From: a virus
IMG/VR virus record: IMGVR_UViG_3300028549_001760
Length of the DNA stretch: 50,401 nt
Reading direction: 5' to 3' (one strand)
Under the pieces are notes generated by a model. That model was not told the DNA's origin. It saw only the letters and a list, made by a program, of their open reading frames with translations, and did not search any database. The position numbers were made by a program, and so were the translations under genes. Positions 6,793 through 47,166 of the stretch are shown in pieces. Numbering within the stretch: position 1 is the first letter of the stretch; the number at the start of each line of letters is the position of its first letter.

Positions 6793-7055
6793 TGACTGGC
6801 AAGAAAATCGGTAAATCGGTCATGTGGGTGGTCGGGTTTCTGGCGTTCCTCGGAGTCGTGCTATTGTGTATATTCAGGGGAGCGTCCGACAACGTGACCA
6901 TGTACGCTATGGGCGCTCTGGTGGTCCACTTTGGCATTGGGATGGGCGTTGACCTTGGCGCCAAGATCCAGCGGTCAATCTGGTACCGTCGTGAGCTTGA
7001 TTCAAACGCTCGACCGAATAATGTGGAAAATTTTCCACAAGGGACATCAAGCTGA
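6789..7055 (+). CDS. 88-aa two-TM membrane protein with a charged tail (holin-like)
   Basis: ATGA overlap at 6789-6792. TM segments VMWVVGFLAFLGVVLLCIF and AMGALVVHFGIGMGV. The C-terminal VENFPQG is encoded by palindrome copy 1. Confidence 0.5.
   Translation: MMTGKKIGKSVMWVVGFLAFLGVVLLCIFRGASDNVTMYAMGALVVHFGIGMGVDLGAKIQRSIWYRRELDSNARPNNVENFPQGTSS
7022..7039. promoter_or_regulatory. 18-bp palindrome TGTGGAAAATTTTCCACA, copy 1 of 10
   Basis: Perfect palindrome. It lies inside the 3' end of 6789..7055 and at the opening of the frame that leads to 7193..7531. Confidence 0.8.
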
Positions 7056-7192
7056 ACAGTGAAAGCGGATTCCTTGAGTCGTTAATTTTCGCACTCAACA
7101 AGCGGGGGTGCGATGTAACGGCCGAGGATCTGCGTCAGCGGGTTTGTGAGGATGATCCCTGCACCCGGTATTACATAGAGAAAAATCCTACC

Positions 7193-7988: not shown

Positions 7989-7993
7989 AATAA

Positions 7994-8020
7994 AACAGGG
8001 CAGCATTACGCCGCCCTGTT
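7994..8020. terminator. Hairpin between the convergent gene blocks (putative bidirectional intrinsic terminator)
   Basis: aaCAGGGCAGC-attac-GCCGCCCTGtt has an 11-bp stem with one mismatch. T-rich sequence follows on both strands (tttgtc / ttattctat). Confidence 0.6.
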
Positions 8021-8022
8021 TG

Positions 8023-8268
8023 TCATAGATAGGTTTTGACTCTAGGCATTAGCGCTTTGCTTCTGCCCTTTTTCCCTTCCGGCTCTTCCTTTACCCTATC
8101 ACCCACAATAAACGTGTATTGCCTGGCCTTAAAAGTATCCAGCTGCTCAAGGTTAGCCGATGACCTGGCCATGCGGATTGTGGTGTAACTTAGCCCCAAG
8201 GTTTCGGCCGCTTCCTTGAGGGTGGAGAATTCCATCCTTTTGCCGTCCTTTATTACGATCGTTTTCAA
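8023..8268 (-). CDS. Small DNA-binding protein, NUMOD1-like helix-turn-helix (81 aa)
   Basis: TTG start 6 nt after GGAGGA, overlapping the upstream TGA. KDGKRMEFSTLKEAAETLGLSYTTIRMA matches the F-x-S-x-x-EAA-x-x-LG-x-S-x-x-x-I pattern of nuclease-associated DNA-binding modules. Confidence 0.5.
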   Translation of the reverse strand: MKTIVIKDGKRMEFSTLKEAAETLGLSYTTIRMARSSANLEQLDTFKARQYTFIVGDRVKEEPEGKKGRSKALMPRVKTYL

Positions 8269-9389: not shown

Positions 9390-9929
9390 TCAGAACGGTA
9401 TATCGTCGTCAGAAGGGTTCCAACCGCCGGCTGCTGGGGCCTGGGGTTGGGCAGGTTGACGATTTGGTGGCTGCCACTCTTTAGGTCCGGCAGCCGGGGC
9501 TTGCTGCTGCTGCGGCCATTGCTGCTGGGCTTGCTGCGGCGGCTGCTGGTGGGCCGACTGCTGCGGTTGCTGGAAGTTCTGCTGCTGGTACTGCGGGGCA
9601 GCGTCCGGGGCTGGAGCGATCTGCTGCAAGTCGAATACGTTGATCGACAGCGCGCGCTTTTCAACGCCAGCCTGGTCGGTCCAGACATCCTCGTTCAGCT
9701 CTCCGGAAACCGACACCATGGCACCCTTGCGGTACCCGCCGGAATTGGCAAAGCTGACATCGTTACCACGGAAAGAGGTGGCCTTGAACCAAATGGTGTT
9801 CTTTTTGTCGCCGAAGCCGCGGCCACAAGCCACCGCCAGGGAAACAAGCGACTTGGTCCCGTCGCCATAAGCCTTGGTTTCAGCATCACGGCCCAACCGG
9901 CCAGTAATGGTTATCGTTCTGGTATCCAT
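9390..9929 (-). CDS. ssb: Single-stranded DNA-binding protein with a Gln/Pro-rich linker and an acidic tip
   Basis: OB-fold N-terminus (ITITGRLGRDAE...WFKATSFRG). The linker is QYQQQNFQQPQQ... and the C-terminus is DDDIPF. AAGGAG lies upstream. Confidence 0.9.
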   Translation of the reverse strand: MDTRTITITGRLGRDAETKAYGDGTKSLVSLAVACGRGFGDKKNTIWFKATSFRGNDVSFANSGGYRKGAMVSVSGELNEDVWTDQAGVEKRALSINVFDLQQIAPAPDAAPQYQQQNFQQPQQSAHQQPPQQAQQQWPQQQQAPAAGPKEWQPPNRQPAQPQAPAAGGWNPSDDDIPF

Positions 9930-9938: not shown

Positions 9939-10667
9939 TTACGCGAGAATGGTCATCTGCGGAAGCTGCTTTTGCAGCATTTCCTTGATCTTATTCATGG
10001 CAAGATTCTGCCAAGATCCGCCGTCAGCCTCGAACAGGGCGAAGCTTGCCTTGTTGTCCTCATTCCTCATGCGGAGCAGGAAGGGGGAACATACCTGGTC
10101 AAGCTCGGGGAAGGTACGATACGGACGCAGGTACACCACGGCTGGAGCGGTTTCCTTGGCTTTTACCGTGCCGGATCCGTTCTTTTTGGTTACGGTAGTC
10201 TGGCCGACGCCGTCATCTTCGGTTTCGACGGTTTCGCCGACGACAACGCGGGAAGCGTAGCTGACGACCTTTTCCATGTCCTCGCCATCTTCGAAGCGGG
10301 AGCGCAGCTGGATAATGAACTGTTCGGTATCCATCCAATTGCCGAAGCGGAATTTCTCCGTCTCTACCGGGGTAGAGGTGGCAACGTACAGGCGCTCCAT
10401 GAACTTGCCCTCCTGGCGGGTAACCAGACTGACGCCCTGGAAGCTTTCGACGATGAGCATAGAATCCTGCATCTTTACTTCGTCCTTATTGGCCTTGATG
10501 TAATCCACCAGGCCGGAGAGGCTATGCAGCTTCAAGGTTGGGAAGCTGGCTTTGACGCGAACCGGGTGTAGCTCGGCCGGTGTAAACATGACGCCATCAA
10601 CTTCCTTGATGTCGCAGTTGTTAATGGCCATGCTTTCGATCTTTTCAATAAAACTCTTGTCGATCAT
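9939..10667 (-). CDS. Hypothetical 242-aa protein
   Basis: ORF track. AAGGAG lies upstream of the ATG. No motif recognised. Confidence 0.65.
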   Translation of the reverse strand: MIDKSFIEKIESMAINNCDIKEVDGVMFTPAELHPVRVKASFPTLKLHSLSGLVDYIKANKDEVKMQDSMLIVESFQGVSLVTRQEGKFMERLYVATSTPVETEKFRFGNWMDTEQFIIQLRSRFEDGEDMEKVVSYASRVVVGETVETEDDGVGQTTVTKKNGSGTVKAKETAPAVVYLRPYRTFPELDQVCSPFLLRMRNEDNKASFALFEADGGSWQNLAMNKIKEMLQKQLPQMTILA

Positions 10668-10676
10668 TGGATCTCC

Positions 10677-11021
10677 TTACGCTCTTGATTTCATCGAGAC
10701 GATGTTGCTGGACTCGTCTAAATCCAATTCTGCCTGGCGAGGATCGTCCGGGTAGGCTACCAGGTCGCCATTTTCGCGCTCCAGGTACAAGGCGCCAATG
10801 CTGGCCGGCATCGGCGGAAGCTTGGTGGTTACCTGGGCTTCGATGGATGCTGACCGGCGGGTCTTGTCCGGCTTGATTTTGATATGGATCGTAAGCTCAC
10901 GCATGGCGTCCGGCTTGACGCTTAGGTCAGCAATGTTGGCCAAGATCTTCTCAATCTCGGCGTCGAAAATGTCATGGACGGCGCCACCGTTCATGTTTCT
11001 CAAGCTCAACGACTTCTTCAT
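10677..11021 (-). CDS. Hypothetical 114-aa protein
   Basis: I moved the start to ATG 11021 (MKKSLSL), directly after AAGGAGG. The 9-codon track extension MENFPQGGF is the palindrome read as protein. Confidence 0.6.
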   Translation of the reverse strand: MKKSLSLRNMNGGAVHDIFDAEIEKILANIADLSVKPDAMRELTIHIKIKPDKTRRSASIEAQVTTKLPPMPASIGALYLERENGDLVAYPDDPRQAELDLDESSNIVSMKSRA

Positions 11022-11031: not shown

Positions 11032-11049
11032 TGTGGAAAATTTTCCACA
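11032..11049. promoter_or_regulatory. 18-bp palindrome TGTGGAAAATTTTCCACA, copy 2
   Basis: Perfect palindrome, 20 bp with flanking T/A. On the minus strand it abuts the SD: CCACAAGGAGGGTTTATG. Confidence 0.8.
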
Positions 11050-11082: not shown

Positions 11083-11667
11083 CTATATATTGCCGGTAGC
11101 GTTCAAAGAATCTAGTATTTCGTCGTGCCCTTCCATGTAATACTGGATATAAATATAACCAACAGTCGAGGATAGTGCTGCCGCTTCTATTAGCACACAA
11201 TCAAGATCCGCTGGCATGGCTGCCTTGTCTGTCCATATAGCCAATAACTTGCGATCCTTTTGCAGCAAAGACATCATGTAGTACCGCGCGTCCGACCATA
11301 TACTTCCGCGGTTTATGTTATCAATGAAGTTACTGGCTGGCCCATAGTTATTTGTTAATAACTCTTTTAGCCGATTGTATTCTGTTACAAGACCTTCACC
11401 AAAAGCTCCGCAGTTTATATCCTTGCTGATAAGCCGGACTGAAAACAGCCCTATTTCGGGGTGGATATTTACCAGGAATATATCAAAGGCGCTTGTCGCT
11501 TGCGGTGCCTTGGTCATGATCCAGATCGTCTCGCTATTGTCTGCGAGATACATTTCCGGATCGATAGTCTGGAGTTGTTCTAGGGTCATTCCCTTTTCAA
11601 ACCCGAGGGGTCCGGCGAACACGGACATGGCCATAATGAGCATGATGAATACTAAAAGTTGTTTCAC
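11083..11667 (-). CDS. Secreted protein (N-terminal signal peptide), function unknown
   Basis: GTG start 5 nt after AAAGGAG, with a GTGA overlap with the upstream stop. The N-terminus is MKQLLVFIMLIMAMSVFAGP. Confidence 0.6.
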   Translation of the reverse strand: MKQLLVFIMLIMAMSVFAGPLGFEKGMTLEQLQTIDPEMYLADNSETIWIMTKAPQATSAFDIFLVNIHPEIGLFSVRLISKDINCGAFGEGLVTEYNRLKELLTNNYGPASNFIDNINRGSIWSDARYYMMSLLQKDRKLLAIWTDKAAMPADLDCVLIEAAALSSTVGYIYIQYYMEGHDEILDSLNATGNI

Positions 11668-15146: not shown

Positions 15147-15329
15147 TTAATTCCTTAAAATCTCGTGCCAGTCATAAGCGCAGCAGCTTATCGGCACGGA
15201 TATGTACATTGCCATGTGAACGGCCCCTGCCGGCCTGGGTTGTTTCCTTCCCAGGGTCGGCGGGCCTTCGATTTCCACAGAGGACATCATCTTCCAGTCC
15301 TTATCGTAGAACTCGACTTTGGTTTTCAC
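15147..15329 (-). CDS. Hypothetical 60-aa protein
   Basis: ORF track. GTG start with a GTGA overlap with the ParB-like gene stop. Confidence 0.4.
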   Translation of the reverse strand: MKTKVEFYDKDWKMMSSVEIEGPPTLGRKQPRPAGAVHMAMYISVPISCCAYDWHEILRN

Positions 15330-16201
15330 TTGTCACTCGGCTTATACAGGCCGCATTTGCCATCGACACACACACCGCACTTGACTACGGTTTCTGCGCC
15401 CTTCTGGTCGGGGGTCCGGATCTGTCCTGTCCCACCGCACGCCTGACAAGTCAGCATCCGTTTCGGGGTCCAAGATAAAAGCCGCTCTTTCATTTCAGAA
15501 ATGTTCCCGATCATGTGGCCGACAGATTCCGGGGTCGTGGAGCCGCGGGCCTTGGCCAGCCTCATGTAGATGGCATCCATGAACGATGTCAGTCGGTAGA
15601 CGTCCTCAAGGTAGAAGTATTTGCGCTTCTCCATGATGTCGGCGACTTCTTCATTCACCGCGGCTTCAATTGGTGGTTCGATGCTTTGCGCTTCCTTGTA
15701 CGCTCCATCAACGCTCTTGTTGAGACGCTGGCGGAGCCTGTCTGCCTGGTCCGGATCCGATTCTTGCATGGCGTCTATGGCTTCAACTACCTTCTCTGCC
15801 TTGCTGAATGTTCGGCCGGACATCCCTATTTCTTTTCCGATAACGTCCCGGGTCCGTTCTCCACGGCGCGCCGAGATCTCCTTGAGTCTGGTCCCTTCTC
15901 TGACCTTTTCCTCGATGGTCTTGGACCGATACTGGTTTGACAGAATGAGGTACTGTAGTTCGTCATCCTGATTATCAAAGCTCTTGAATGATACGGGAAC
16001 TTCGTCCAGGGAAAGTTTGACGGCGGCGCGGTACCGGCGGTGGCCGGATATAATCACGCACTTGTCGTTGACGATTATCGGGTGGAGGATTCCACTTTCT
16101 CTGACGGAATTCTCGAGCTCGAGATCGTCAATTTCCGAGGTGAAGTAAATCTTCCCGTTTGCGGGATGCTCTGATAGAGCATTGAGCGGCATCATTGGCA
16201 T
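15326..16201 (-). CDS. ParB/Srx-fold nuclease-like protein with a C-terminal zinc-finger
   Basis: IIVNDKCVIISGHRRYRAA contains the ParB N-terminal GHRR motif. The C-terminus CQACGGTGQ...KCGVCVDGKCG resembles a DnaJ-type zinc finger. Confidence 0.7.
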   Translation of the reverse strand: MPMMPLNALSEHPANGKIYFTSEIDDLELENSVRESGILHPIIVNDKCVIISGHRRYRAAVKLSLDEVPVSFKSFDNQDDELQYLILSNQYRSKTIEEKVREGTRLKEISARRGERTRDVIGKEIGMSGRTFSKAEKVVEAIDAMQESDPDQADRLRQRLNKSVDGAYKEAQSIEPPIEAAVNEEVADIMEKRKYFYLEDVYRLTSFMDAIYMRLAKARGSTTPESVGHMIGNISEMKERLLSWTPKRMLTCQACGGTGQIRTPDQKGAETVVKCGVCVDGKCGLYKPSDK

Positions 16202-19738: not shown

Positions 19739-20337
19739 AGGGTCACAAAGTACGCGGCAGCCGCGCGGATTTGCTCGACATCGGATTCAGGGATAGCCGA
19801 AGCTTTCGTGAACAGAGCGGCGCCCTGCTGCCCGGTTATCTTCCCCTGGCGCTGGAGTAGGCCAAGGTAATCCATCAGTTCTGCCTTGGTGCTGATGCTG
19901 GCGGCGGCCTTCTGCACCTGCTTCTTGTCAGCCTCATTGTTCTGATCTGACGAGGCCAGGTCCGGGTCATCCGTGGTAATCAGGTTAAACGTCTTGAGCA
20001 GTCCATACTTCCCTGCATAGGTCATCGCCTTGCCGGCGTGCTTGTCGCTGGTATCGTGGCCGGCGCCGATCGATCCAATGATTTCGCTTTCCCCGGTTTC
20101 GGAGTCGACAAACTTGTACTTACAGGTGGCTACCGCCACATTGCCGACCAGCTGGACCTGGGCGTCGATCGGGAAATAAAGCAACTTCTCCCGTACCAGG
20201 AGCGGGCGGATCATTTCGAGGACCGCGGCTTCGGTGGTCACGTTATAGCCCTGGCCGCTTTTCATTTCGATTCTTTTGTCCCGCAAGACATGGCTGGTTT
20301 CGTCCATGATGCGTGCGAGCTTTTCATACAAGCCCAT
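19735..20337 (-). CDS. erf: ERF-family single-strand annealing protein
   Basis: I moved the start to ATG 20337 (MGLYEKLARIMDE). DKHAGKAMTYAGKYGLLKTFNLITTDDPD matches the ERF core. The track extension MIVEIFPQGGF is the palindrome read as protein. Confidence 0.8.
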   Translation of the reverse strand: MGLYEKLARIMDETSHVLRDKRIEMKSGQGYNVTTEAAVLEMIRPLLVREKLLYFPIDAQVQLVGNVAVATCKYKFVDSETGESEIIGSIGAGHDTSDKHAGKAMTYAGKYGLLKTFNLITTDDPDLASSDQNNEADKKQVQKAAASISTKAELMDYLGLLQRQGKITGQQGAALFTKASAIPESDVEQIRAAAAYFVTL

Positions 20338-20347: not shown

Positions 20348-20365
20348 TGTGGAAATATTTCCACA
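20348..20365. promoter_or_regulatory. 18-bp palindrome TGTGGAAATATTTCCACA, copy 3
   Basis: Perfect palindrome. On the minus strand it abuts the SD: CCACAGGGAGGCTTCATG. Confidence 0.8.
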
Positions 20366-20366
20366 A

Positions 20367-20558
20367 TCAAACGGTGAATGGGACAATCAACAATCCTTTC
20401 GTTCCATCATCCAATTCCACCGCGAACATTTCGGCCTTACCATCAAGGCCAGTGATTTTTTGCATAGCCGCCGGGACGATAACGTAGCGGCTATTTCCTC
20501 TGGATTTTTCTCCACTTACCGAAACGATTGCCCGGTCTAGCTTATTCTTGATTGTCAT
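20367..20558 (-). CDS. AbrB/SpoVT-like small DNA-binding protein (tentative)
   Basis: 63 aa. SRYVIVPAAMQKITGLDGKAEMFAVELDDGTKGLLIVP resembles the swapped-hairpin pattern (IPkeirk.lgl..gd.v). AGGAGG lies upstream. Confidence 0.4.
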   Translation of the reverse strand: MTIKNKLDRAIVSVSGEKSRGNSRYVIVPAAMQKITGLDGKAEMFAVELDDGTKGLLIVPFTV

Positions 20559-23008: not shown

Positions 23009-23026
23009 TGTGGAAAATTTTCCACA
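23009..23026. promoter_or_regulatory. 18-bp palindrome TGTGGAAAATTTTCCACA, copy 4
   Basis: Perfect palindrome that abuts the SD of gene 22622..22996. Confidence 0.8.
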
Positions 23027-25140: not shown

Positions 25141-25158
25141 TGTGGAAAATTTTCCACA
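25141..25158. promoter_or_regulatory. 18-bp palindrome TGTGGAAAATTTTCCACA, copy 5
   Basis: Perfect palindrome, 3 nt from the 3' end of the tRNA-like element and 40 nt upstream of ATG 25100 (minus strand). Confidence 0.8.
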
Positions 25159-25161: not shown

Positions 25162-25228
25162 TGGGGACGGCAGGACTTGAACCTGCGACTGCCACTAAAG
25201 GCTAACCTACCAACTGGTCCACATCCCC
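25162..25228 (-). ncRNA. tRNA-like element (67 nt): acceptor, D and T arms fold, the anticodon arm does not
   Basis: The minus-strand reading is GGGGATG-TG-GACC-AGTTGGTA-GGTT-A-GCC-TTTAGT-GGC-AGTC-GCAGG-TTCAAGT-CCTGC-CGTCCCC-A. The anticodon region has only a 3-bp stem and a 6-nt loop, and the element is about 6 nt too short for a standard tRNA. Confidence 0.4.
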
Positions 25229-25270: not shown

Positions 25271-25717
25271 TTACTCGTGACAGGTCTGAATAGCTTCATC
25301 GACGCCGGACTCGCCAGCTTCGATAGCGTCGGCCGCTTCAACGCGGGCCTCAAGATCGGTGTCGGCTGAATCGTTGGTGGCCTTGCGCGGTACCGGCTTG
25401 AACTCAACGTGTTCAGCTACTACCTTCACGCGGGCCTGCATCTTGCCTTCGGCATCGGTCCAGCGATCCTGCTTGATGCGTCCTACGATACGGACGCCGC
25501 GGCCTTTGACCAGATGATTCGCGCAGGTTTCGGCCAGCTTCGACCAGCACTCGATGGAGATAAAGCTGACTTCCTTTTCAGTGACGTCGCCGTTCTTGTA
25601 GAAGCGGTTGGTCCCAACGGTGAATTCGCAGACCGAGTGGCCGTTAGGCGTGGTCTTGAGGATCGGGTCGCGGGTGAGGTTGCCTTCGATGATGATACTG
25701 TTCAAATTGCTCAACAT
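25271..25717 (-). CDS. Second SSB-family protein (OB fold), lacking the canonical acidic-tip motif
   Basis: IIIEGNLTRDPILKTTPNGHSVCEFTVGTNRFY...ISIECWSKLAE fits the SSB OB-fold pattern. The C-terminus is acidic but ends ...AIQTCHE. Confidence 0.8.
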   Translation of the reverse strand: MLSNLNSIIIEGNLTRDPILKTTPNGHSVCEFTVGTNRFYKNGDVTEKEVSFISIECWSKLAETCANHLVKGRGVRIVGRIKQDRWTDAEGKMQARVKVVAEHVEFKPVPRKATNDSADTDLEARVEAADAIEAGESGVDEAIQTCHE

Positions 25718-27330: not shown

Positions 27331-27453
27331 GCCATTCCTCCTTGTGGATTCTACCACTGGGTTTCACCTAGATTTTCGTACAGGATTTTCGTACTAGAGA
27401 AGCACACCCCTCGATTTTCGTGATGGTTTTTGGCTTCTAGCGGCTCCCAGCAA

Positions 27454-27899: not shown

Positions 27900-27944
27900 G
27901 ATACACTCCTTTACCACTATACCGTGGTATCCTACCGGATAAAA

Positions 27945-27962
27945 TGTGGAAATATTTCCACA
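27945..27962. promoter_or_regulatory. 18-bp palindrome TGTGGAAATATTTCCACA, copy 6
   Basis: Perfect palindrome. It shares an extended 29-bp context ATAAAATGTGGAAAWWTTTCCACAATTTG with copy 7. Confidence 0.8.
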
Positions 27963-28002
27963 ATTTGCTGTGAACATCGAACTGCATCAACCAGATATAA
28001 AA

Positions 28003-28020
28003 TGTGGAAAATTTTCCACA
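28003..28020. promoter_or_regulatory. 18-bp palindrome TGTGGAAAATTTTCCACA, copy 7
   Basis: Perfect palindrome, 58 bp from copy 6, at the edge of the AT-rich stretch. Confidence 0.8.
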
Positions 28021-28155
28021 ATTTGAGATCAAACTACATGATGAAAACACCTATATACATCACTATTATTTTGAACAAAACCATATCAAATATCATTAAA
28101 ACTATATGTATATTGAATAATTCATATAACATTTTGTACAAAACCTTTTACATTT
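28021..28155. other. AT-rich gene-free stretch bracketed by palindrome copies 7 and 8 (candidate DNA-unwinding element / replication origin)
   Basis: I counted 26 G+C in the 120 bp from 28021 to 28140 (about 78% A+T). The palindrome halves fit the relaxed DnaA-box pattern TTWTNCACA. Confidence 0.4.
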
Positions 28156-28173
28156 GGTGGAAATATTTCCACA
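28156..28173. promoter_or_regulatory. Palindrome copy 8, GGTGGAAATATTTCCACA (16-bp core perfect, outer base mismatched)
   Basis: The core GTGGAAATATTTCCAC at 28157-28172 is a perfect palindrome. Confidence 0.7.
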
Positions 28174-28228
28174 ATATGGTCAAAAACACCGGGGTTATAT
28201 AAAACAGAGTGGTCTTTTACCATACAAA

Positions 28229-28398
28229 CCACATGGCGGTAGCCATTTGGTGGATGATATTCATGATGGGAGTACAATAGAATGGAGTCCCAACGCATTT
28301 TCATTCGGTGCGGTAGCACCGGTTTTCCTTCCTTACACGACTAACCATCCCAACATACCTGGCGGTAGCCGGGACATTTATATTGGACGACTAACCAT
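28229..28398. repeat. Three related stem-loops with identical GGTA loops, plus a duplicated 12-mer ACGACTAACCAT, in a gene-free region
   Basis: The hairpins are at 28229-28253 (CCAC-ATGGC-GGTA-GCCAT-ttg-GTGG), 28306-28321 (CGGTGC-GGTA-GCACCG) and 28358-28373 (CCTGGC-GGTA-GCCGGG). The 12-mers are at 28337-28348 and 28387-28398. Confidence 0.8.
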
Positions 28399-28429
28399 TT
28401 TAAGAATGATCTACCCAAGGGGGACCTAT

Positions 28430-28477
28430 TCAAAAAAAAATAAAAAGCAAAAAAAAAGAGGCCAGCCTTTCGGCCAG
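28430..28477 (-). terminator. Minus-strand intrinsic terminator
   Basis: The minus strand reads CTGGCC-GAAA-GGCTGG, where the stem needs G-U pairs and so forms only in this orientation. It is followed by CCTCTTTTTTTTTGCTTTTTATTTTTTTTT. Confidence 0.6.
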
Positions 28478-29400: not shown

Positions 29401-29705
29401 CTTGAAACCTCTTGCTTAAAAGCTTGCCTATCACTATGTGATACTTTACTAACAATTCAAGTATGGGGCTTGTGTACCATACCTTGCTAGTGGCCTATAC
29501 TGCGTGCCTTGTCTGTTGCCAAGTCTACGCTATCCTATGTTAAAGACTGTTGCAATCAAGTGTTGTCCTTGCTGTTGCAACCATGTAATGAATATACAGT
29601 ATTCAAATAAATAATGCAAGCGAAAAACGGCTTTTTAGGTATATATACCAGTGACCCCTCCGAGAAAATTTTGGTTCTCCAAAACACCTTGAACTGCTGC
29701 CACCG

Positions 29706-30501: not shown

Positions 30502-30671
30502 AGAAATCCGGCGAGATTGTTGCCACTATCCCGCCGAACACTTTTCCGGGTGAAGTGTTGAGTACACCGATCACCCAAAGGATGTACAAACCAGAGCCCC
30601 GGAACTACGAGTCATTCCTTATTGAGTCCGGCGGAAAGTTCTACTGGCCCCGTATCGAGGAAATGCTGTGA
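30471..30671 (+). CDS. Hypothetical 66-aa protein
   Basis: GTG start 4 nt after GGAGGG. The stop overlaps the terL start. Confidence 0.4.
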   Translation: MAVRFTYQGMKKSGEIVATIPPNTFPGEVLSTPITQRMYKPEPRNYESFLIESGGKFYWPRIEEML

Positions 30672-32119
30672 GTGTCGCCCTGCAGCGGGATAAGCTGAAA
30701 GAGTTTATCCAGATCCGCATCGCATTAGCAAGAAAGTCCTTCTGGCAGTACTGTATGGCTGCGGACCCGATCTTCTACCTTCCGGAGCGGAAGCATCTAA
30801 AAATCCTGTGCAACACCCTTCAAGCCCTCTTCGAGTCCAAGATTGTGCGAAAGCCTGGCGAAGAGTGGCGCATGATCCTACCGGATGAACCCCTCTCCGA
30901 TCTTGAGGTTTGCCGGAATCTAATTATCAATATGCCGCCGCGCCACGGCAAGACGCGCACCTTAGTCCTCTTCGAGGCTTGGATCCTCGGCCGCAACAAA
31001 TTGGCCAAGTTCGTGACGGCCAGTTATAATGACGACGCAGCTGCCGATATTTCCCGGTACGTCCGCGACACCCTGGCCGAAGTGAAGCAGGGACCCACCC
31101 ATATTGTCTATGCGGACATTTTTGACACAACTATCAAAAAGTCGGACGCATCGATTCAACGCTGGGCTGTCGATGGATCATACTTCTCTTATATTGGAAC
31201 GGGCCCGGGTGGTACCGTCACCGGCAAGGGCGCTGACTGGCTGATTGTTGATGACCCGGTCAAGAACGCGGAAACCGCCTTTAACGCCCTGGCCATGAAG
31301 AAAATCAATTCCTGGGTGATGAACACCCTATTGTCCAGAACCGAATCGGGCGCGCGCAAAATCATCGTGCATACTCGCTGGCCGAACGGCGATATCACCC
31401 ATGCCTTCATGTCCAGCCCCGAAGCCCATACCTTCTATCACCTGGTCATGGAAGCATACGACGGCACCGATATGCTGTGCGACGAAATCATGTCCAAGGC
31501 AGATTACGACTCAAAGCGCAATTTGATGGACATGACCATCTTCGAGGCGAACTACAATCAGCATATCATCCGGCCGGAGGGCGCGCTGTACCGTGACCTC
31601 AAGACCTATACAATCCTGCCTGAAAGCCCCGAGCGCGAGATCTGCTTTATCGATACGGCTGACAAGGGCGAGGACTTTCTTTGCGCCGTGTTCGGTGTGG
31701 TGGCCGGATCCTACGCTTACGTCACCGATGTGGTGTACACCCAGGAACCTGTCGAAGCCTCCCAGCCTCTTGTTGTGGAAGCCCTGATCTCGAACGGTAC
31801 CAAGGAACTATGCGTCGAATCAAACTCGGGCGGCGCCGGGTTTGCCAAGGATGTAGAGGAAATGTTGATCAAGCGGGGATATAATCTGTCAGTGGAAACA
31901 CCGATGCAGCTATCAAACAAGGAAACCAGACTGATTACGAATTCCGCCGCTGTCCAGCAACGTATTCTTTTCCCCCTTGACTGGAATGATAGATTCCCGC
32001 AATACTATGAAGCAATGACCCAGCACTTGCGTATCGGTCGCAATTTACACGATGATGCTCCGGATGCCACAACGGGGTTCTACGAGTTTGCTTTCGATGG
32101 AGGTGTGATATTAGCCTGA
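30668..32119 (+). CDS. terL: Terminase large subunit
   Basis: Walker A-like PPRHGKTRT, Walker B DWLIVDDP and IIVHTRW. The C-terminal nuclease half has IDTADKGEDF. Confidence 0.85.
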   Translation: MSVALQRDKLKEFIQIRIALARKSFWQYCMAADPIFYLPERKHLKILCNTLQALFESKIVRKPGEEWRMILPDEPLSDLEVCRNLIINMPPRHGKTRTLVLFEAWILGRNKLAKFVTASYNDDAAADISRYVRDTLAEVKQGPTHIVYADIFDTTIKKSDASIQRWAVDGSYFSYIGTGPGGTVTGKGADWLIVDDPVKNAETAFNALAMKKINSWVMNTLLSRTESGARKIIVHTRWPNGDITHAFMSSPEAHTFYHLVMEAYDGTDMLCDEIMSKADYDSKRNLMDMTIFEANYNQHIIRPEGALYRDLKTYTILPESPEREICFIDTADKGEDFLCAVFGVVAGSYAYVTDVVYTQEPVEASQPLVVEALISNGTKELCVESNSGGAGFAKDVEEMLIKRGYNLSVETPMQLSNKETRLITNSAAVQQRILFPLDWNDRFPQYYEAMTQHLRIGRNLHDDAPDATTGFYEFAFDGGVILA

Positions 32120-38678: not shown

Positions 38679-40393
38679 GTATCGTTTCCGGACAAGATTC
38701 AAGACTACAGATCGGCCTCGCGAACACCTGGCGCGTCCCGACCCGTACCAAGCAGCGCGTTCCTTTTACCCAAGAAGGTTTCAAAGGCACGCCCAACTAC
38801 AAGGAGTCCGACGCCCTAGTCGGAGCTTCCGGCATCACCGGCATGAGTATCATGTCGTACAAAGCCGATGGCTCGTTGACGAGCTATCTTCCAATCGACC
38901 TGGCCAAGCTTTTGCTGGCCGCAGCCCTTGGTTTCGAGACTGCCCCGGCCGCCGTCCCTGGCAACGCCGGTCAGTATGTCCACAAGTTTGAGCCGGTGCC
39001 GTCTGGCGCTTGTTCCAACCTGCCGTCCTTGACGGTCGAAATCGATCGCTTGCTTGAGCGCGCCCTGTACATGAATTTCAAGATCGGCACCTGGAAGATC
39101 TCCGGTAAGGCCGAGGACTACGTCATGTTCGAGTGCGACGGCCCGGCTTTCAAAGAATCCATCCAGAACGTCTTGGCCAAGTTCGTTGTCGCTGGAGCCG
39201 CTGCGGTCACCCCTGACGGCACCACCGGCGAGATCACCCTGGCTGTCCATGACCGGATCGTGCTTGACAACAACGGTACCACCGACGAGTTGGTAGGCAA
39301 GATCCTGCGCATACAGGACAAGGTTTCTTGCGGCCAGGTGTTCTATTTCGTCGTGACCGAAGTGGACGACACCACCCCGGGTTCTTACACCCTCACCGCC
39401 GCTACCATGCGGCAGGCTGCCACCGGCCTCCCGGCGGCCATGTTGGTTGCCGGTGCCCGACCGCTTACTCCCTGGTGGGAGAGCAATACCATTCTGGATC
39501 TCCGTGGCCTGACCGCAGAGATCGTGGACTGGGAAATGGCTCCGAGCGTTCCGCTGTCCACCAAAGAGTACCTACGGTTCGTGCATGGTTACCTATACAT
39601 GGACGACGCCGTGGCCGACTACGCGATCCTGCATACCAAGACTGGTATCGCTGGTGACGTAGTCATCGACTGCCCCGCTTCCGTTACCTCCGGCTTCGAA
39701 GTCGAAGGCCGCGACTTGCAGGGCGTCCCCCGTATCTTCAAGTACATCGGCGCTGCGGTTACCCCGGCCGCCGGTGTGATCACCTTCTCTGACACCCCGA
39801 TCCTGACCGATGGTACCATCCAGTCTGTCTACGATGGTGGCATTTTGGCCGCCGCCGCCTGGGAAATCGGTGAGGATCTGTACGACGAAGTCACCGATTT
39901 CACGATTGGTGGCGACAACAAGATGGCGGACGGCAAGTTTGGCCTGAATGGTTCCATGTACCAGTCAGAAGTCAACCCCACCTCCCGCGACTTCACCCTG
40001 GACCTGACCGCCCGGTTTACCGAGCGTCTGTCCAAGCTGCGCAAGCAGCGCATGATGACCGGCCGCCCGATGTCTGTACGTCTCGAGTTCGAGACTACGA
40101 TCGGCGACGGTCCTGAAGGTTACGACGCTGCGAGTTCCGTTGACTCACAGGGCCGCCCATATCGCCTGGTTCTGGAAGCCAAGAAGTGTTATTACACCGA
40201 TGGTATCCCGAACATCGGTGGCGCGGACGAGCCGACTGTCAGCCCGAAACTGCGTTGCGCCGAGACTCCGACCGTTCACAAGGCGATCACCGCCTACGTC
40301 TACGATGACAAAAACGAAGCCGTACTTGGCACCAGCGATGCCCTGGCCGCCGAGTGGAAAGTATCCACCCGCGAGGATGCTTTCTTAGGTTAA
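38675..40393 (+). CDS. Major tail (tube) protein with a large C-terminal extension
   Basis: 572 aa, immediately upstream of the chaperone pair and the tape measure. Followed by a GC hairpin. Confidence 0.55.
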   Translation: MSIVSGQDSRLQIGLANTWRVPTRTKQRVPFTQEGFKGTPNYKESDALVGASGITGMSIMSYKADGSLTSYLPIDLAKLLLAAALGFETAPAAVPGNAGQYVHKFEPVPSGACSNLPSLTVEIDRLLERALYMNFKIGTWKISGKAEDYVMFECDGPAFKESIQNVLAKFVVAGAAAVTPDGTTGEITLAVHDRIVLDNNGTTDELVGKILRIQDKVSCGQVFYFVVTEVDDTTPGSYTLTAATMRQAATGLPAAMLVAGARPLTPWWESNTILDLRGLTAEIVDWEMAPSVPLSTKEYLRFVHGYLYMDDAVADYAILHTKTGIAGDVVIDCPASVTSGFEVEGRDLQGVPRIFKYIGAAVTPAAGVITFSDTPILTDGTIQSVYDGGILAAAAWEIGEDLYDEVTDFTIGGDNKMADGKFGLNGSMYQSEVNPTSRDFTLDLTARFTERLSKLRKQRMMTGRPMSVRLEFETTIGDGPEGYDAASSVDSQGRPYRLVLEAKKCYYTDGIPNIGGADEPTVSPKLRCAETPTVHKAITAYVYDDKNEAVLGTSDALAAEWKVSTREDAFLG

Positions 40394-40399
40394 CTTCTT

Positions 40400-40415
40400 G
40401 GGGGCTTCGGCCCCC
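40400..40415 (+). terminator. GGGGGC-TTCG-GCCCCC hairpin after the major tail gene (attenuator/terminator-like)
   Basis: Perfect 6-bp GC stem with a TTCG loop. Only TT follows, so it is a weak intrinsic terminator at best. Confidence 0.45.
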
Positions 40416-40424
40416 TTGAAGAGT

Positions 40425-40442
40425 TGTGGAAATATTTCCACA
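40425..40442. promoter_or_regulatory. 18-bp palindrome TGTGGAAATATTTCCACA, copy 9
   Basis: Perfect palindrome, 60 nt upstream of ATG 40503. Two further small hairpins (CCTGGC-cta-GCCAGG, CTGCC...GGCAG) lie in between. Confidence 0.8.
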
Positions 40443-40502
40443 ATTTGCCTGGCCTAGCCAGGATATCAACTGCCACGGCAACGGCAGTATAAGGGGCACT
40501 GT

Positions 40503-40976
40503 ATGGATCTTAAGGTTTTGAAAAGCAGAAGCATCGGTATTTTTGCTAAGAAGATTTACATCGGCCGGTTCTTCTCCGATCTTAGCAAGGAAGATTTCGC
40601 CACCGAGCAGGAGTATTTCGCTCACCTCGACTCGATCGACAAAGACGAGTACGTCTACATGAGGGAGCCGACCACCGAAGAGGCCAAGCAGCTGGGTTCC
40701 CCGGCCCTGGATGACGCAATCGTCGCCCGCCTCCCGCCCGAAAAACAGATTGACTATTACGAGAAGAAGAACAAAGAGAACATGGGCAGTTCTGACGCGG
40801 TGATGGCCCTGGCCCGGAAATGTATCGTTTCCTCTAGCATCAAGAACGGCGAGCAGCCGGCCGACGTCAAAGAAGTCCAAGAGCTCGTGTTCAGCTCCCA
40901 AAACCTGGCCGGCTACATCATGCGTGAGTGGATGGCCGGCAGCGCAGTTTTTCCGAAGAAGAGCGACGAAGCCTAG
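40503..40976 (+). CDS. Tail assembly chaperone (G-like)
   Basis: 157 aa, directly upstream of the tape measure. It overlaps a -1 frame ORF that runs to the tape measure start. Confidence 0.65.
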   Translation: MDLKVLKSRSIGIFAKKIYIGRFFSDLSKEDFATEQEYFAHLDSIDKDEYVYMREPTTEEAKQLGSPALDDAIVARLPPEKQIDYYEKKNKENMGSSDAVMALARKCIVSSSIKNGEQPADVKEVQELVFSSQNLAGYIMREWMAGSAVFPKKSDEA

Positions 40977-44200: not shown

Positions 44201-47148
44201 TGGCGAGCTTAGTAACCACCGAAGCCTCTAGGGCTGGCAATATTTTAACTGACCGCAGCACTGGCCCGCTCGACACTCAAAGCACTTACGCTAGAGCAGT
44301 CGGATTGATAACCGATTATAGTGAAGCTACGACCAATGCACTTGCAAACTTTGCCAGGAACGCTACAAGGCCAGATCGTACAGATAGCGCTTCCAGCCTG
44401 ATGGGAGAGTTCAGCCTTGCTAATACTCCTAATAGGAGCCAACGGACTTATCAGGCAAACGCTCAAGTAGGGCCAGACGGGACAATTGTGTCGCTACGAG
44501 GCACGGCCTATAACACGGCGCACGCTGGAGCGGACGTAGTCCTTTCCCCTGAATCGATAGCTGCATTCGCACAAGCCATGCTCGATGTTGGGAACACAGA
44601 CAATACGCTTGGTGAAATACTGGACCAATTTAGGGCTGGCAGGATTGATGAAACCGAAATGCAATCGCAGATCGATTTTTATTTGCAGGGCTTAAAGGAC
44701 TTGCAGGCGCAGACGGTCGAGTTCGCTACTGGGACAACGTCAGCCGAAGATTTCTCGGACGCGATAGATGATCTCGACACTTCATTCAGGACAAACGTCC
44801 AGAACTTGATGGTGCGATATAACGCAGCAAGGCAAGACAATAACGCAGAGCAAATGTTCAACATTAACTCTGAATTAAATAGTGCTATAGCTGGGTACCT
44901 GGATGACGTCACCACCAAGGGGCTTGAGGCTGGGTTAGGCAAAGTCGCGATTGAAGCATTAAGAGCCAGGAAACTTGGCTCGTCCACCGGGACAATCCGT
45001 GCGGCAAAAACATCGTACCTTAATCCTGAATTCCAAGAAGAAGTGACCACTGTTCTTGATACTATGTCGGTGATCCAGAACGATCTTGTTGGGTATCGTG
45101 TCAATATTCAGAACGCGTCCGAGTCGTCCGGTGTTTATTCGGAGTTGCTGATGGACTCAAATGTCCACCAAAACCAATTAAACTCACTTGAGGGCGGCGT
45201 ACTTCTCGCGGCGCTTACTCAATATGCTAACACGACCACAGAAACTACCGCAGCGTTTGATGCAGTAAAAAAGAGCATTGCTAAAATTAGACTTGATGCT
45301 TTCCAAGAGTCAGTGGGTAACGCCTCGCTTGCTTTACGCAGGGCGGCCGAGACAGCGATGCTTGCACTAGGTGACCCAGGGACGTCCATGGCTGGCCGTA
45401 TTTCTGCGCGAGGGACGATTACGTCTGCGTTTACTAATGGGGCCGTTGCGGATCTCCCGGCTGCGGAAGTGTTCAAAATGCTTTCGGAGCTTGTTGAAGA
45501 AGAAACAGCGCTTGTTTCCGCCTGGACAACTAGCCGGCCGGCTGACGAAACGATGGTAGCCTTTAGTCCACAAGCGATAAAGCTTTTAGCCCCACTTACT
45601 CAAAACTGGCAGGACATGGTTGACTACGCGACCCAAGCCAATAGTGGCCAGGGTGGGACCATAGCCGGTATGCGCGCTAGTGGAGCAGCGCTTACCTATT
45701 CAAGCGGCGGGAAAACCCCACAAACAGAAGCGCAGTTAAATGAAATGCTGGCCGGCTTGAACATGAATCTGTCTGGCGACCGTGAAGTTGCGCAGTCCAT
45801 GAAGGACTCTTTCTATGTATTCCGCCAGGCCACAAAGCAACTGCAGGACTCGACCCGCGACATGACCAATAGCTTCCGGAATTCAAACACCACCCAGGCC
45901 GAAGCGTATGAGCGGCAGATAGAAGAATTGCGGACCAAGATCGCCGAAGATTCCCTGTACGCTGCGGAGGATGATATCGGCCGCGAGGCGATTGCCCTGG
46001 CCGAAGAACAGATCCGAATACTTGAAGGCATGGCCCGATACGAGAGGGCTGCCGCACTCACCAACCCGAACTACAACGCCTTTGAGCAATGGCTCCGGAA
46101 GGGCGCCCCTGGCTTAACTCCCACAGAGCAGGCTGGGCCTCGTCAGCCGTTTACCTGGGAATCGATTGGCGTTGGCCTTAAATCCTTTATTGATGGAATC
46201 AGGGGGATCCCTGCCGACCTCATAAAGGGCTTGGAAGATTGGGAGAAGGGGCTTAGGGAGGGCGTTGCTGATTTCTATACCAAAAACGGTATCCCTGGTA
46301 ACAAGCTCGACGCAGAAGGAAACCCGACTGGCGAATTCCAGCAAGTCCCTCTCGGTGATATGGCAGAAGGCTTAGGCAACGCGGCCGAGGGCGGCATAGA
46401 CGAGTTGTTAAAAGGGCTGGCCGATGGCTTGAGCGCTGCCGGCGGTGTGCTGATGGCATTCCTCATGGCCCTGCAGAAAGTCCGATCCTTGATGATCTTG
46501 CTTGGCGGCCCGGTCCAATGGCTTGCCGTAATCTTCGAGGTGGCCGTGGCCTGGCTTAAGCCGGCGATAGATAGTGTGTTGGCCCCGTTCGTTGGTATCC
46601 TGGTTGTCCTTGGCCAGGTACTCGGCGCGGTCCTACTCCCGTTGGTGATGGCCTTCATGCCGGTGTTCCTTGCCCTGGCCCAGTTGTTCGTCATGGTCTA
46701 CAACCTCTTGCTTCCGGTGTTCAATGTCTTGGTAACGATCTTCACGGTTATTGGCAATGTGGTGTTCAACGTGATGCTTGCCTTTATGCAGGTCTTGGCC
46801 TGGGTGGCCACCCTGCCGTTCATGGCAGATACCATGACCGAAGCGGATAGAGCTAGGTGGAATAACACCCAGGCCAAACGGTGGGACGCAGGTGTGAAGG
46901 ATGCCCAGCTGCAGCCTATCGTGCTTGGACAGGTCACCGAGGCCGGAGCCACATACCTGGCTAACGAAGGCGGCGCTGGATCCACTGGGGGTAGCGCAGA
47001 GGCTACCAGGATGCCAGACCAGTACTTCAATTTCTATATTGGCGCCGATGCGATCACCGATATTGACGGTGGAAAAATAGTCTCGGTTGATTATATACTA
47101 GACGTATTCGAGGCCAGGATGGCGGAACAGGCCCGGGCCATGGGGTAA
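41227..47148 (+). CDS. Tape measure protein (1973 aa)
   Basis: The longest gene, helical and Ala/Gln-rich. It has hydrophobic blocks at about residues 790-880 and 1740-1850 (…LAVIFEVAVAWLKP…VLLPLVMAFMPVFLALAQLFVMVY…). The start is GTG 41227 or ATG 41230. Confidence 0.9.
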   Translation: MMARSGKLSQVISLNIETAQAIKAVADLTGSMTKGFTAAFSSLSSNMNGMLKTIEQISKKLEDASTRFVTKPTEMNAELSKNILRNKTSTQQQNMAGMATGSVAQNNIVRGVDAMTAYTQNMNAFWTSIYTKVKGGGIYKDSSLASSALRSLNSVEKFMANTGQADQAAMFKQLNGKNGAVQRASDAFRVMLESQNKVATGENAKKLLGFYLTGDYMAPDELNKRLKTAGAAVFKDRGAKPAWDAYAKEKFVDPSIDSSAYVSRLYKQVQAVIKDSNRPIEERIDFLKSRLGKDANVGVTSENNEDGSIKQTITYARKALHEFIRKEAQNAQAQVNRSIAEVSAQGTLSWQNNSGKISGHDSSSVAAFQARYITPTDAQPIGISWFETMRMKMLNFMKIDPGVDAKISKAKHDANENVINAIDALGYRLITISYMFQKMNMMIDNAMQVMETATTTRQTAMGRIQPILRNDTGKFGYEGSMAETQRYQAGLEAIARRTGQSFETLSRALYDASSAFPYAADKLAVLNVSSRLSAVGFANTERAMESMIAVMKTFYADVEGSPEQFDAALRRVANMAMTATDLGVLEINELSVSMQNMAPSASMLGLSMDEMYASLAATSGVVGSASRAATKLNQLFMALAMPPTSTLRDYYAQMGVTGRQFIEQSGGLIQALTKINEAAGGSGVGANFEAGPQLRQYLGRAQATQATNALMSSVESFNDTTYAIQNNFLALNNAFYQARFGVAEYTNELNIAKQETERINARFGEAMLPARIWLNKLTNSFREAFMGLAGGIVPYMMVAGANVAKVAAGLMAFVGGLFLALRALSQFSYETTKAMLITKMKSATGADPLNITEQLLGGRNQLVARGVNGSTMAAYALTSTGMLVTLGVIAGAVLLISAATAYIMKYYEDEKKKRVRESRRVLSMNMGGELGQIQRQIVVANQSIQTGTTQVQRDASRGALDFIGDQLDTKIQTVERWNEIAEQYAGPDLKVLASLVTTEASRAGNILTDRSTGPLDTQSTYARAVGLITDYSEATTNALANFARNATRPDRTDSASSLMGEFSLANTPNRSQRTYQANAQVGPDGTIVSLRGTAYNTAHAGADVVLSPESIAAFAQAMLDVGNTDNTLGEILDQFRAGRIDETEMQSQIDFYLQGLKDLQAQTVEFATGTTSAEDFSDAIDDLDTSFRTNVQNLMVRYNAARQDNNAEQMFNINSELNSAIAGYLDDVTTKGLEAGLGKVAIEALRARKLGSSTGTIRAAKTSYLNPEFQEEVTTVLDTMSVIQNDLVGYRVNIQNASESSGVYSELLMDSNVHQNQLNSLEGGVLLAALTQYANTTTETTAAFDAVKKSIAKIRLDAFQESVGNASLALRRAAETAMLALGDPGTSMAGRISARGTITSAFTNGAVADLPAAEVFKMLSELVEEETALVSAWTTSRPADETMVAFSPQAIKLLAPLTQNWQDMVDYATQANSGQGGTIAGMRASGAALTYSSGGKTPQTEAQLNEMLAGLNMNLSGDREVAQSMKDSFYVFRQATKQLQDSTRDMTNSFRNSNTTQAEAYERQIEELRTKIAEDSLYAAEDDIGREAIALAEEQIRILEGMARYERAAALTNPNYNAFEQWLRKGAPGLTPTEQAGPRQPFTWESIGVGLKSFIDGIRGIPADLIKGLEDWEKGLREGVADFYTKNGIPGNKLDAEGNPTGEFQQVPLGDMAEGLGNAAEGGIDELLKGLADGLSAAGGVLMAFLMALQKVRSLMILLGGPVQWLAVIFEVAVAWLKPAIDSVLAPFVGILVVLGQVLGAVLLPLVMAFMPVFLALAQLFVMVYNLLLPVFNVLVTIFTVIGNVVFNVMLAFMQVLAWVATLPFMADTMTEADRARWNNTQAKRWDAGVKDAQLQPIVLGQVTEAGATYLANEGGAGSTGGSAEATRMPDQYFNFYIGADAITDIDGGKIVSVDYILDVFEARMAEQARAMG

Positions 47149-47166
47149 TGTGGAAAATTTTCCACA
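47149..47166. promoter_or_regulatory. 18-bp palindrome TGTGGAAAATTTTCCACA, copy 10
   Basis: Perfect palindrome that starts 1 nt after the tape measure stop. It lies 26 nt upstream of ATG 47193, with AAGGAG in between. Confidence 0.8.

Follow-up and report, generated by a model that had tools for sequence, protein, structure and literature searches.

The viral DNA analysed here, IMG/VR record IMGVR_UViG_3300028549_001760 (50,401 nucleotides; the window, meaning this whole stretch), carries the perfect palindrome TGTGGAAAWWTTTCCACA at the heads of genes and operons of a tailed phage. Comparison of the window with related phages, plasmids and bacteria gives an even chance, in our judgement, that this palindrome is a parS/NBS/OB-like recognition site of the phage's own ParB/Noc/KorB-like protein, through which units would be controlled genome-wide.

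Nine exact copies were found by pattern search, starting at 7022, 11032, 20348, 23009, 25141, 27945, 28003, 40425 and 47149, together with one copy that has a single mismatch. Dinucleotide-preserving shuffles of the window, used to set the chance level, gave a mean of 0.00 matches to the exact pattern and 0.02 with up to three mismatches. This agrees with an earlier description of the window made without database searches (the sequence-only reading), which had counted ten copies and expected none by chance. Six copies have AT at the centre and four have TA; neither AA nor TT occurs there, and the symmetry of the palindrome therefore runs unbroken through the middle.

Bases 1-255 of the window recur identically as bases 50147-50401, which makes it a complete genome of 50,146 bp, either circularly assembled or terminally redundant. 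Late genes occupy the plus strand from 29706 through the junction of the ends to 7993; the minus strand carries the early and replication genes (29400 to 8023), and a bidirectional terminator (7993-8021) lies where the two blocks meet. Four copies of the palindrome are fused to a Shine-Dalgarno (SD) sequence, one more than had been proposed. In the early block, the copy at 11032..11049 (AT centre) runs into AGGAGG and ATG 11021; that at 20348..20365 (TA centre), 1 nt past the stop codon of an AbrB-like gene, runs into GGGAGG and the ATG of the ERF recombinase gene (20337); and that at 23009..23026 (AT centre), which closes a 138-nt AT-rich gap, runs into AGGAGG and a GTG start at 22996. The fourth (7022..7039, AT centre) lies within the last 11 codons of a holin-like open reading frame (ORF; 6789-7055) and is followed by AAGGGA-N7-CTG, the CTG at 7052 being the only start candidate after it. 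The holin-like ORF has two predicted membrane helices and overlaps (CTGA) a 159-aa frame that is open from 7022 and runs to 7531; before ATG 7193 its sole SD-preceded start is CTG 7052. This frame, which gave no Pfam or NCBIfam match, may be a CTG-initiated lysis gene.

The copy at 25141..25158 (AT centre) lies 3 nt past the 3' end of a tRNA-like gene, with a start codon 42 nt downstream. The late block holds a copy at 40425..40442 (TA centre), between a gene for a 572-aa tail protein and one for a 157-aa protein, where it follows a GC-rich hairpin and precedes further hairpins and then the ATG; the gap as a whole (40393-40503) folds as a row of four hairpins (-50.7 kcal/mol, z = -4.4), the second being the palindrome. 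Another late copy, at 47149..47166 (AT centre), is found 1 nt past the tape-measure stop codon and 27 nt before the ATG of a 1474-aa tail gene. Three copies are clustered in the AT-rich non-coding early control region (27900..28459, minus strand), downstream of a strong minus-strand intrinsic terminator (28460-28479). That closest to the genes (27945..27962, TA centre) is 45 nt upstream of ATG 27899, the next (28003..28020, AT centre) is 58 bp from it, start to start, and the third (28156..28173) is the one-mismatch copy GGTGGAAATATTTCCACA, whose variant half (GGTGG...) is of the type seen in the relatives R1 and L156 described below. The latter two, in a 590-nt AT-rich non-coding leader, are separated by 100-250 nt from the first early gene (ATG 27899) downstream. 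The earlier statement that all copies directly precede start codons is thus mostly right but needs correcting, above all for 28003 and 28156. The upstream neighbour is often a stop codon or a hairpin, as had been noticed, and in one case the tRNA-like gene. The degenerate copy reported at 27343 (TGTGGATTCTACCACTGG on the plus strand, 27343..27360) keeps only the outer GTGG and CCAC arms; it is fused to AGGAGG ahead of ATG 27330, is preceded by three iteron-like repeats, and can at most be a relic. No copy is present in several of the intergenic gaps, 74-120 nt long (after 22037, 21187, 20633 and 25802), and the palindrome is thus not a generic gap filler.

Related phages were sought by terminase searches of IMG/VR, GTDB genomes and metagenome contigs, and further ones were reached through the ParB-like protein. 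Three close relatives (terminase identity ~63%) were found in IMG/VR. Terminase matches in GTDB genomes and metagenome contigs did not exceed ~46% identity and their loci were without the motif, and no prophage relative of the window was found by these searches. A search of IMG/VR with the single ParB-like protein and a search of GTDB with a four-sequence profile returned almost nothing. The exact 18-mer, searched across IMG/VR and GTDB genomes, gave singletons, unrelated hairpins and arrays resembling repetitive extragenic palindromic (REP) elements, with no relative of the window among them.

Palindromes of the same kind are present in four to five related lineages, with 4-15 copies each. 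R1 (IMGVR_UViG_3300000236_000001; 37.8 kb, assembled from L179, L158 and L171) has 15 copies of the form AAAGG-TGGAAAATTTTCCA-CCTTT; L155 (17.7 kb) has eight and L393 (16.8 kb) five, both of the form ATTA-core-TAAT; L156 (10.4 kb) has six (GG/TG-core); L389 (17.9 kb) has four (TG-core-CA); and L391 (17.4 kb), whose ParB-like protein is 46% identical to that of the window, has four of the form GGG(C/A)AAATTT(G/T)CCC. Most lineages keep the 14-bp core TGGAAAATTTTCCA unchanged, while the flanks vary by lineage, with GTGG found in the window and L389, AAAGGTGG in R1 and L156, and ATTATGG in L155 and L393. In L391, the most distant relative, the common core has gone and a diverged palindrome, GGGMAAATTTKCCC, takes its place, again in the order stop-palindrome-ACAAGGAGG-start. 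The predicted recognition helix of the L391 ParB-like protein reads RTFENGAKVV, against RTF(S/D/A)K(A/G)E(K/A)V(V/I) elsewhere.

Gene order is alike in the window and R1, and some copies occupy equivalent junctions, so that the motif is conserved in relatives in position as well as in kind. The R1 counterpart of the tail-gene junction (40425) has a copy at 29680, that of the tape-measure junction (47149) has two (36446 and 36508), and the divergent control region has a cluster of copies in both genomes. Across the clade the start codon is 12-21 nt past the core in about 22 of 52 copies, and several copies come right after clear intrinsic terminators. In L389 and L393 one copy is placed directly upstream of the SD sequence of the ParB-like gene itself. 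Within each genome all copies have that genome's flanks, even at junctions common to several genomes, and this uniformity suggests a reader that co-evolves with the phage. By these comparisons the element is old in the clade and conserved in position, its sequence drifting as the phages diverge and its copies changing together. About half of the R1 copies (11052, 12923, 12981, 19820, 19860 and 36446) are followed, as transcription runs, by a conserved oriented extension, CC(A/T)CTC(C/T)AA(A/T)ATCTC(C/T)A, which is lacking in the window.

The candidate reader is a 291-aa ParB/Noc/KorB-like protein (15326..16201, minus strand), assigned with Pfam, phmmer, and an AF2 model searched with Foldseek. 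The sequence-only reading had suggested the operator of a dimeric regulator from host or phage; an operator read by a dimeric and probably phage-encoded protein is still the favoured idea, but this protein had not been named. Its parts are a ParB N-domain (PF02195; Pfam ParB_N E=1.8e-10) with the box GHRRYRAA, a helix-turn-helix, MSGRTFSKAEKVVEAID, and a zinc-ribbon-like C-terminal tail of the type CxxC...CxxC (in full CxxCxGxG...CxxCxxGK, with short strands in the model). In phmmer, residues 4-146 aligned to Spo0J (1vz0), ParB and Noc over both the GERRYRAA box (GHRRYRAA here) and the helix-turn-helix. The AF2 model (pLDDT 82) matched Noc 7nfu, ParB 6t1f, KorB 8qa9 and Spo0J over ~200 columns with E about 1e-6; these structural columns include those of ParB-parS and Noc-NBS complexes, and the KorB structures 8qa9 and 8qa8 were among the top matches. 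Of the nucleotide-binding boxes (the GxxRxxA arginine patch and a box III of ENxxR type), GHRRYRAA and N89..R92 are conserved. No known defence system that includes the gene was found with PADLOC.

It is the homologues of this protein in unrelated genomes that point to the palindrome as its site. In a first sample, loci were retrieved solely by a 16-18-mer DNA pattern, and the ParB-like protein was then compared by tblastn with all loci collected. In at least 15 of them the palindrome lies inside a homologue of the ParB-like gene (8 viral contigs, 6 cyanobacterial genomes and a Magnetococcus metagenome-assembled genome, MAG). There it encodes V-E-N-F-P-(Q/H/P), in a linker of ~30 aa between the N-domain and the helix-turn-helix that is absent from the protein of the window clade. 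As this sample had been chosen by DNA, homologues found by protein similarity alone were also taken, and their linker palindromes are 16-30 bp long. The linker palindromes include CCAGCTTGTGGAAAATTTGCCACAAGCTGG on a 332-kb bacterial contig (L395, P0014), the core of which is identical to the window motif at 17 of 18 positions, AAAAGGTCCGGAAAacTTTCCGGACCTTTT on an ENA contig (L397, P0018), and CAGAGTGGAAAAATTTTTCCACTCTG, AACATTCCGGAAActTTTCCGGAATGTT and ATGGAAAATTTTCCAT on plasmids of Gloeocapsa (L400), Brasilonema (L401) and Oscillatoria (L403). Three protein-retrieved homologues without the linker had no palindrome at that place. By chance, a gene of 900 bp would be expected to contain such perfect 13-15 bp arms ~4e-5 times. 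In the Gloeocapsa plasmid gene the palindrome is read in another frame, giving EWKNFSTL and not VENFPQ, which places the conservation at the level of DNA rather than peptide.

In genomes outside the window clade a lone copy within the gene is almost the rule, and multiplied copies between genes are confined to the clade; of all genes, the ParB-like one alone is common to these contexts. A cognate parS site within the gene of the protein that reads it is also found in spo0J of B. subtilis. We propose, tentatively and at somewhat below an even chance, that an undescribed branch of ParB-CTPase/helix-turn-helix proteins keeps its own palindrome (core GGAAA-N2-4-TTTCC, often GTGGAAAATTTTCCAC) in the linker-coding part of the gene, and that one phage clade lost this stretch while the site spread to 10-15 gene heads, giving a phage-wide, KorB-like regulon under a clamp-type protein.

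One alternative is an RNA-level element. The palindrome would then be a hairpin of 7-8 bp beside the ribosome-binding site that stabilises the 5' end, directs processing or is bound by a phage protein as a translational operator. The motif does fold into such a hairpin, of ~-8 to -9 kcal/mol whatever the context, the 12-21 nt spacing to the start codon in about 22 of the 52 clade copies suits it, and copies often lie behind a stop codon or terminator, a position at which processing or a new 5' end would be expected. The covarying flanks of the intragenic copies in homologues and the lengthened arms in R1 (AAAAGG...CCTTTT) are also in its favour. Pairing does not, however, require what is seen in the main lineages, where 14-18 bases are the same in every copy, the would-be loop included, and in the window that loop is always self-complementary (AT or TA). 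Nor does it agree with the imperfect copies, in which an A to C change four bases from the centre recurs without compensation (R1 17298, L156 9230, L391 2990 and 13893, and the bacterial L395 and L041). In RNA this would be an A.G or C.U mismatch in the middle of a short stem; being uncompensated, and occurring in either arm and in either orientation to transcription, it points to the half-site tolerance of a dimer rather than to base pairing. Hybrid sites with halves of different lineage types are also found (R1 18026, 18069 and 29680; L156 212 and 793; window 28156). Copies 28003 and 28156 are distant from any start codon, RNase III needs a longer stem than this one, and the 7-8 bp fall short of the ~20-bp duplex of an RNase III substrate, while a search of the window against the curated families of Rfam gave no match at the palindromes, the tRNA being the sole one. 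As an explanation the hairpin against the ribosome-binding site is weakened by the uncompensated A/C variants and by the strict identity that extends to the centre. Recognition of double-stranded DNA by a dimer fits these comparisons better, and we regard an RNA-level role as unlikely.

The arguments for reading at the DNA level apply equally to the operator of some other dimeric protein, such as the AbrB/MazE-like 63-aa protein (20367..20558, minus strand), another small early protein or a host regulator, with the palindrome as a repressor or activator site over the transcription start. An extended -10-like sequence, TGGTATAAT, stops 4 nt upstream of copy 11032, and the palindrome would there cover +1. 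The AbrB-like candidate, which had been named in the sequence-only reading, is a genuine AbrB/MazE-type protein: every clade member has its gene ahead of that for ERF, copy 20348 abuts it in the window, and the L391 homologue is a weak PF04014 match. It is nevertheless weaker than the ParB-like protein, as no AbrB-like gene lies beside the palindrome in the plasmid, cyanobacterial and other phage contexts, and AbrB-type proteins usually have loose sequence specificity. The NUMOD-like product of 8023..8268, also put forward, fared worse, with a weak Pfam match only and no homologue in the relatives, and the small early proteins gave no match to helix-turn-helix repressors in Pfam, PHROGs or NCBIfam. 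A host factor, with its fixed specificity, would not explain flanks that change together in each lineage. An operator of this kind has, in our estimate, a small probability. Less probable still is that the palindrome is an inverted pair of host DnaA boxes, with host DnaA used as a regulator or soaked up. The half-site TTTTCCACA is a cyanobacterial DnaA box (PMC4674748). In the AT-centre halves it fits TTWTNCACA, a pattern that had been pointed out before, and the palindromes of a Pirellulaceae MAG (L041) adjoin GGTGGATAA, itself DnaA-box-like. In relatives and homologues, however, the DnaA-critical CACA becomes CACC, CATA, CACT or CGGA and it is GGAAA/TTTCC that stays invariant; copies with a TA centre have ATTTCCACA; and neither the complementary extended flanks nor the link with the ParB-like gene is explained. 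The resemblance to Rex (TTGTGAA-N4-TTCACAA) and CRP-FNR (TGTGA-N6-TCACA) operators proves superficial too, since arm length and spacing differ, the arms being TGTGGAAA around a 2-bp centre, and the invariant bases are GGAAA/TTTCC, not TGTGA. We give only a slim chance to an intrinsic, possibly bidirectional, terminator or attenuator at unit ends. On the minus strand a scan flagged copies 27945 and 28003, both with TTTTAT behind them, as resembling terminators, many R1 copies read AAAAGG-core-CCTTTT, and the same 18-mer is the apex of clear terminators in unrelated Clostridia genomes. Against this, eight of the ten window copies have no T-run and pass directly into an SD sequence, and the L155 type (…CCATAAT) also lacks one. 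GC-rich terminators are often present just upstream of the palindrome (L155 2682, L156 212, window 28460-28479), which would make a second one redundant. An equally slim chance attaches to a module-boundary or mobile regulatory cassette, comparable to the promoter-stem-loop cassettes of T4 type, spread by recombination and serving mainly gene shuffling. The copies do lie at junctions, the gene content between them varies among relatives (the genes flanking 11032, at 11083-11667 and 9939-11021, are unmatched in R1), and flanks uniform in each genome are what copying or gene conversion would give; but copies at shared junctions and intragenic copies in plasmids and bacteria point to a reader acting in trans, and the copies are not accompanied by a transposase or homing enzyme. 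We also considered, and dropped, a promoter within the palindrome itself (a TRTG-extended -10), as it would fire both ways and misfits R1; a sigma-70 scan gave no excess of promoter-like sites over shuffles, nor any consistent placement of such sites at the copies.

Several observations weigh against recognition by the ParB-like protein. The link between protein and site is a comparative one, and the AbrB-like protein is likewise conserved in every member of the clade. The tight SD fusion of about 22 of 52 copies is also expected of an RNA-level element. The positions of the catalytic Gln and Glu are occupied by Asn and His (Asn in some relatives), the ParB C-terminal dimerisation domain gave no match, a zinc-ribbon tail standing in its place, the TIGR00180 score is 42.8 bits against a cut-off of 58.45, and none of the ~70 proteins scanned matched a ParA/CbiA-type partner. 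By these measures the protein falls outside the canonical partition ParBs of ParABS systems, and the same differences make clamp behaviour uncertain.

The homologues raise a further difficulty. In bacteria and plasmids the palindrome runs 5-7 bp past the core, with flanks that differ by genome yet are complementary (TGACCTT/AAGGTCA, CCCGTT/AACGGG and GACGCTT/AAGCGTC among others). A 16-bp ParB-type site has no need of such extensions, which look like the result of selection for a hairpin or cruciform; alternatively, they may be a neutral template-switch 'perfection' of quasi-palindromes in a weakly constrained linker. The palindrome is also clustered in places that have no ParB-like gene within 8 kb. 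A Planctomycetota MAG (OY970367.1; L034, L044, L046, L067, L069, L126 and L129) contains the exact 18-mer at least seven times in repeat arrays of ~50-130 bp (CGTTTTCCCACGATTTTCTCG...), which share the 18-mer but no genes with the window phage, and the Pirellulaceae MAG (L041, 4832-4990) has three palindromes in 170 bp, each preceded by GGTGGATAA(A/C)CC. Terminase relatives of 28-38% identity are present in several Planctomycetota MAGs. Hairpins of another sort were seen in Clostridia, Oscillospiraceae and one viral contig (L051, L056, L081, L086, L118, L148 and L007), where the 18-mer is the apex of longer hairpins with A-run and T-run flanks; these look like ordinary bidirectional terminators.

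If the ParB-like protein does read the palindrome, a dimer would recognise the two half-sites (T)GTGGAAA(W) on double-stranded DNA. The ancestral state, retained in plasmids, bacteria and other phages, would be a single site within the protein's own gene; in the window clade the gene would have lost the linker stretch and the site would have multiplied to 10-15 copies. These would mark the 5' boundaries of transcription and translation units; three of them are grouped in the early control region, and three late-operon junctions also have a site. Occupancy could modulate transcription that enters or starts at each unit, the bound protein acting as a direct operator or roadblock. It might instead be a nucleotide-gated sliding clamp loaded at the sites, if the N-domain closes as in KorB, BisD and ParB (PMC11790492, PMC12409273). 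Either way downstream units would be controlled across the genome. Regulation of transcription is the output that we take as probable, though the same binding could instead serve genome organisation, packaging or protection.

The nearest parallel is KorB, which acts through 12 OB operator sites on plasmid RK2 (PMC11790492). There, too, a member of the ParB family that combines a CTPase fold at the N-terminus with a helix-turn-helix is paired with about a dozen copies of a short palindrome, dispersed at or near promoters over a replicon of ~50-60 kb, and KorB governs them as one global regulon. The window differs in being a phage and not a plasmid, in having no detected ParA/IncC or KorA-like partner, in the abutment of its sites to ribosome-binding sites, and in a reader with a zinc-ribbon-like tail and replaced catalytic Gln and Glu. 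The OB sequence, TTTAGCSGCTAAA, is unrelated to the window site. Chromosomal ParB/Spo0J-parS systems also have a 16-bp palindrome read by the helix-turn-helix of a ParB dimer, about ten copies per replicon and, as in the homologues described here, a cognate site embedded in the protein's own gene. In contrast to these, the window protein scores below the TIGR00180 cut-off and has no ParA, its sites are not clustered near an origin and differ in sequence, and the intragenic copies of its homologues are 16-30 bp long.

Other ParB-like proteins have left segregation behind. Noc, BisD (PMC12409273) and VirB (PMC10653881) are ParA-independent, and the latter two regulate transcription at a distance. 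Noc with its NBS sites, BisD and VirB resemble the window in the repurposing of the ParB fold and in palindromic or specific loading sites, but none of them is phage-encoded with sites at each operon head, and their sites and partners are unrelated. Among phages, the temperate cluster A mycobacteriophages have stoperators, asymmetric sites whose orientation is tied to transcription and to which the immunity repressor binds, and cluster O mycobacteriophages have a repeated 17-bp palindrome. As in the window, one short site recurs in small intergenic gaps throughout the genome, with one phage protein as its known or presumed reader; unlike the stoperators, the window site is fully palindromic and its candidate reader ParB-like, and neither repressor nor integrase was found. 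Phage-encoded ParB-like activators of thymine dioxygenases, which lack a DNA-binding domain and are encoded beside a 5mYOX gene (PMC13229309), share with the window protein a ParB fold and, if our proposal holds, a role other than segregation. The window protein differs in having a helix-turn-helix, and no dioxygenase gene was detected in the window.

ParB-fold proteins are very common in phages, and a DNA target or role is known for almost none of them (PMC12704722). A literature search for the core sequence, and one for TTTTCCACA alone, gave no relevant paper; as far as we found, a dispersed arrangement of ParB/KorB-like sites is known from a plasmid and no phage case is in the literature. 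Should the proposal be correct, this would be the first phage with a dispersed parS/OB-like regulon, the cognate sites of the ParB-like subfamily could be found by searching the linker of the gene itself, and the conserved peptide VENFPQ may exist owing to the DNA binding site that underlies it. The main value lies in turning an anonymous phage ParB-like protein, and with it a whole subfamily, into a testable protein-site pair: as both the candidate site and its candidate reader can be named from sequence, the pair is directly testable.

The remainder of the genome is that of a tailed phage. The large terminase (30668-32119) is 42% identical to that of Geobacillus phage GBK2, and further structural genes encode a portal, a prohead protease, a major head protein and a 1973-aa tape-measure-like ORF. 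The 1474-aa tail ORF that follows copy 47149 crosses the window ends (47193 to 1471) and is absent from the ORF lists. A gene for a radical-SAM protein (3048-4199) lies amid the late and tail genes. Products of the early block are two single-stranded DNA-binding proteins (25271-25717 and 9390-9929), a RadC-like protein, the ERF recombinase, nuclease-like proteins, an SMC/Rad50-like ATPase, the ParB-like protein, a ResIII/DEAD helicase and a RusA-like protein; two Lar-like zinc-ribbon (restriction-alleviation) proteins are also encoded there (26941-27111 and 26043-26294). Searches with Pfam, PHROGs and NCBIfam detected no integrase, repressor, sigma factor, RNA polymerase or ParA. The tRNA-like gene next to copy 25141 (25162-25228, minus strand; Rfam, 46.8 bits) was missed by ARAGORN at default settings, and under relaxed settings gave a cloverleaf with an abnormal anticodon loop ('tRNA-?'). 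A search for near-identical DNA in cultured phages gave no match, and none of them is close to the window; a near-identical strain is present in ENA assembly ERZ27248456.

The window helicase gave a weak match to CyRepA1, a Rep family of cyanobacterial plasmids. On cyanobacterial plasmids and contigs (L132/L398, L400 and L401) the ParB-like gene that holds the palindrome is itself part of a conserved module, with a divergent small helix-turn-helix regulator, a 480-520-aa XRE-family protein and a large DUF3987/primase-helicase-like protein; it looks like a module for plasmid replication or maintenance.

Other repeats occur near the palindromes. The three iteron-like repeats GATTTTCGT(A/G) beside the degenerate palindrome span 27371-27423, and a tandem pair of CTGTCATTTGTGGACAT (27693-27729) lies ahead of the second early gene. 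At the equivalent place in relatives, TGGAGC is repeated every ~10 nt before a palindrome copy (R1 17298, L155 3123 and L156 793). Such iteron-like repeats may be an origin or the sites of a second regulator. Between the early terminator and the palindrome cluster are three small hairpins with a GCGGTAGC apex (~28229-28250, 28304-28322 and 28358-28373) and two copies of ACGACTAACCAT (28337-28348 and 28387-28398); this stretch (28229-28398), which has no Rfam match, may hold a small structured RNA or the sites of other proteins. Finally, the window (29654-29674), L155 (~5120-5140), L156 (~2850-2870) and R1 (~19750-19800) share a conserved element, ACCCCTCCGARAAAATTTTSG, in non-coding DNA ahead of the terS-like gene. 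It includes a GAAAATTTT core that resembles the palindrome centre, is followed by a palindrome copy in the relatives but not in the window, and may be a late promoter or a packaging signal.

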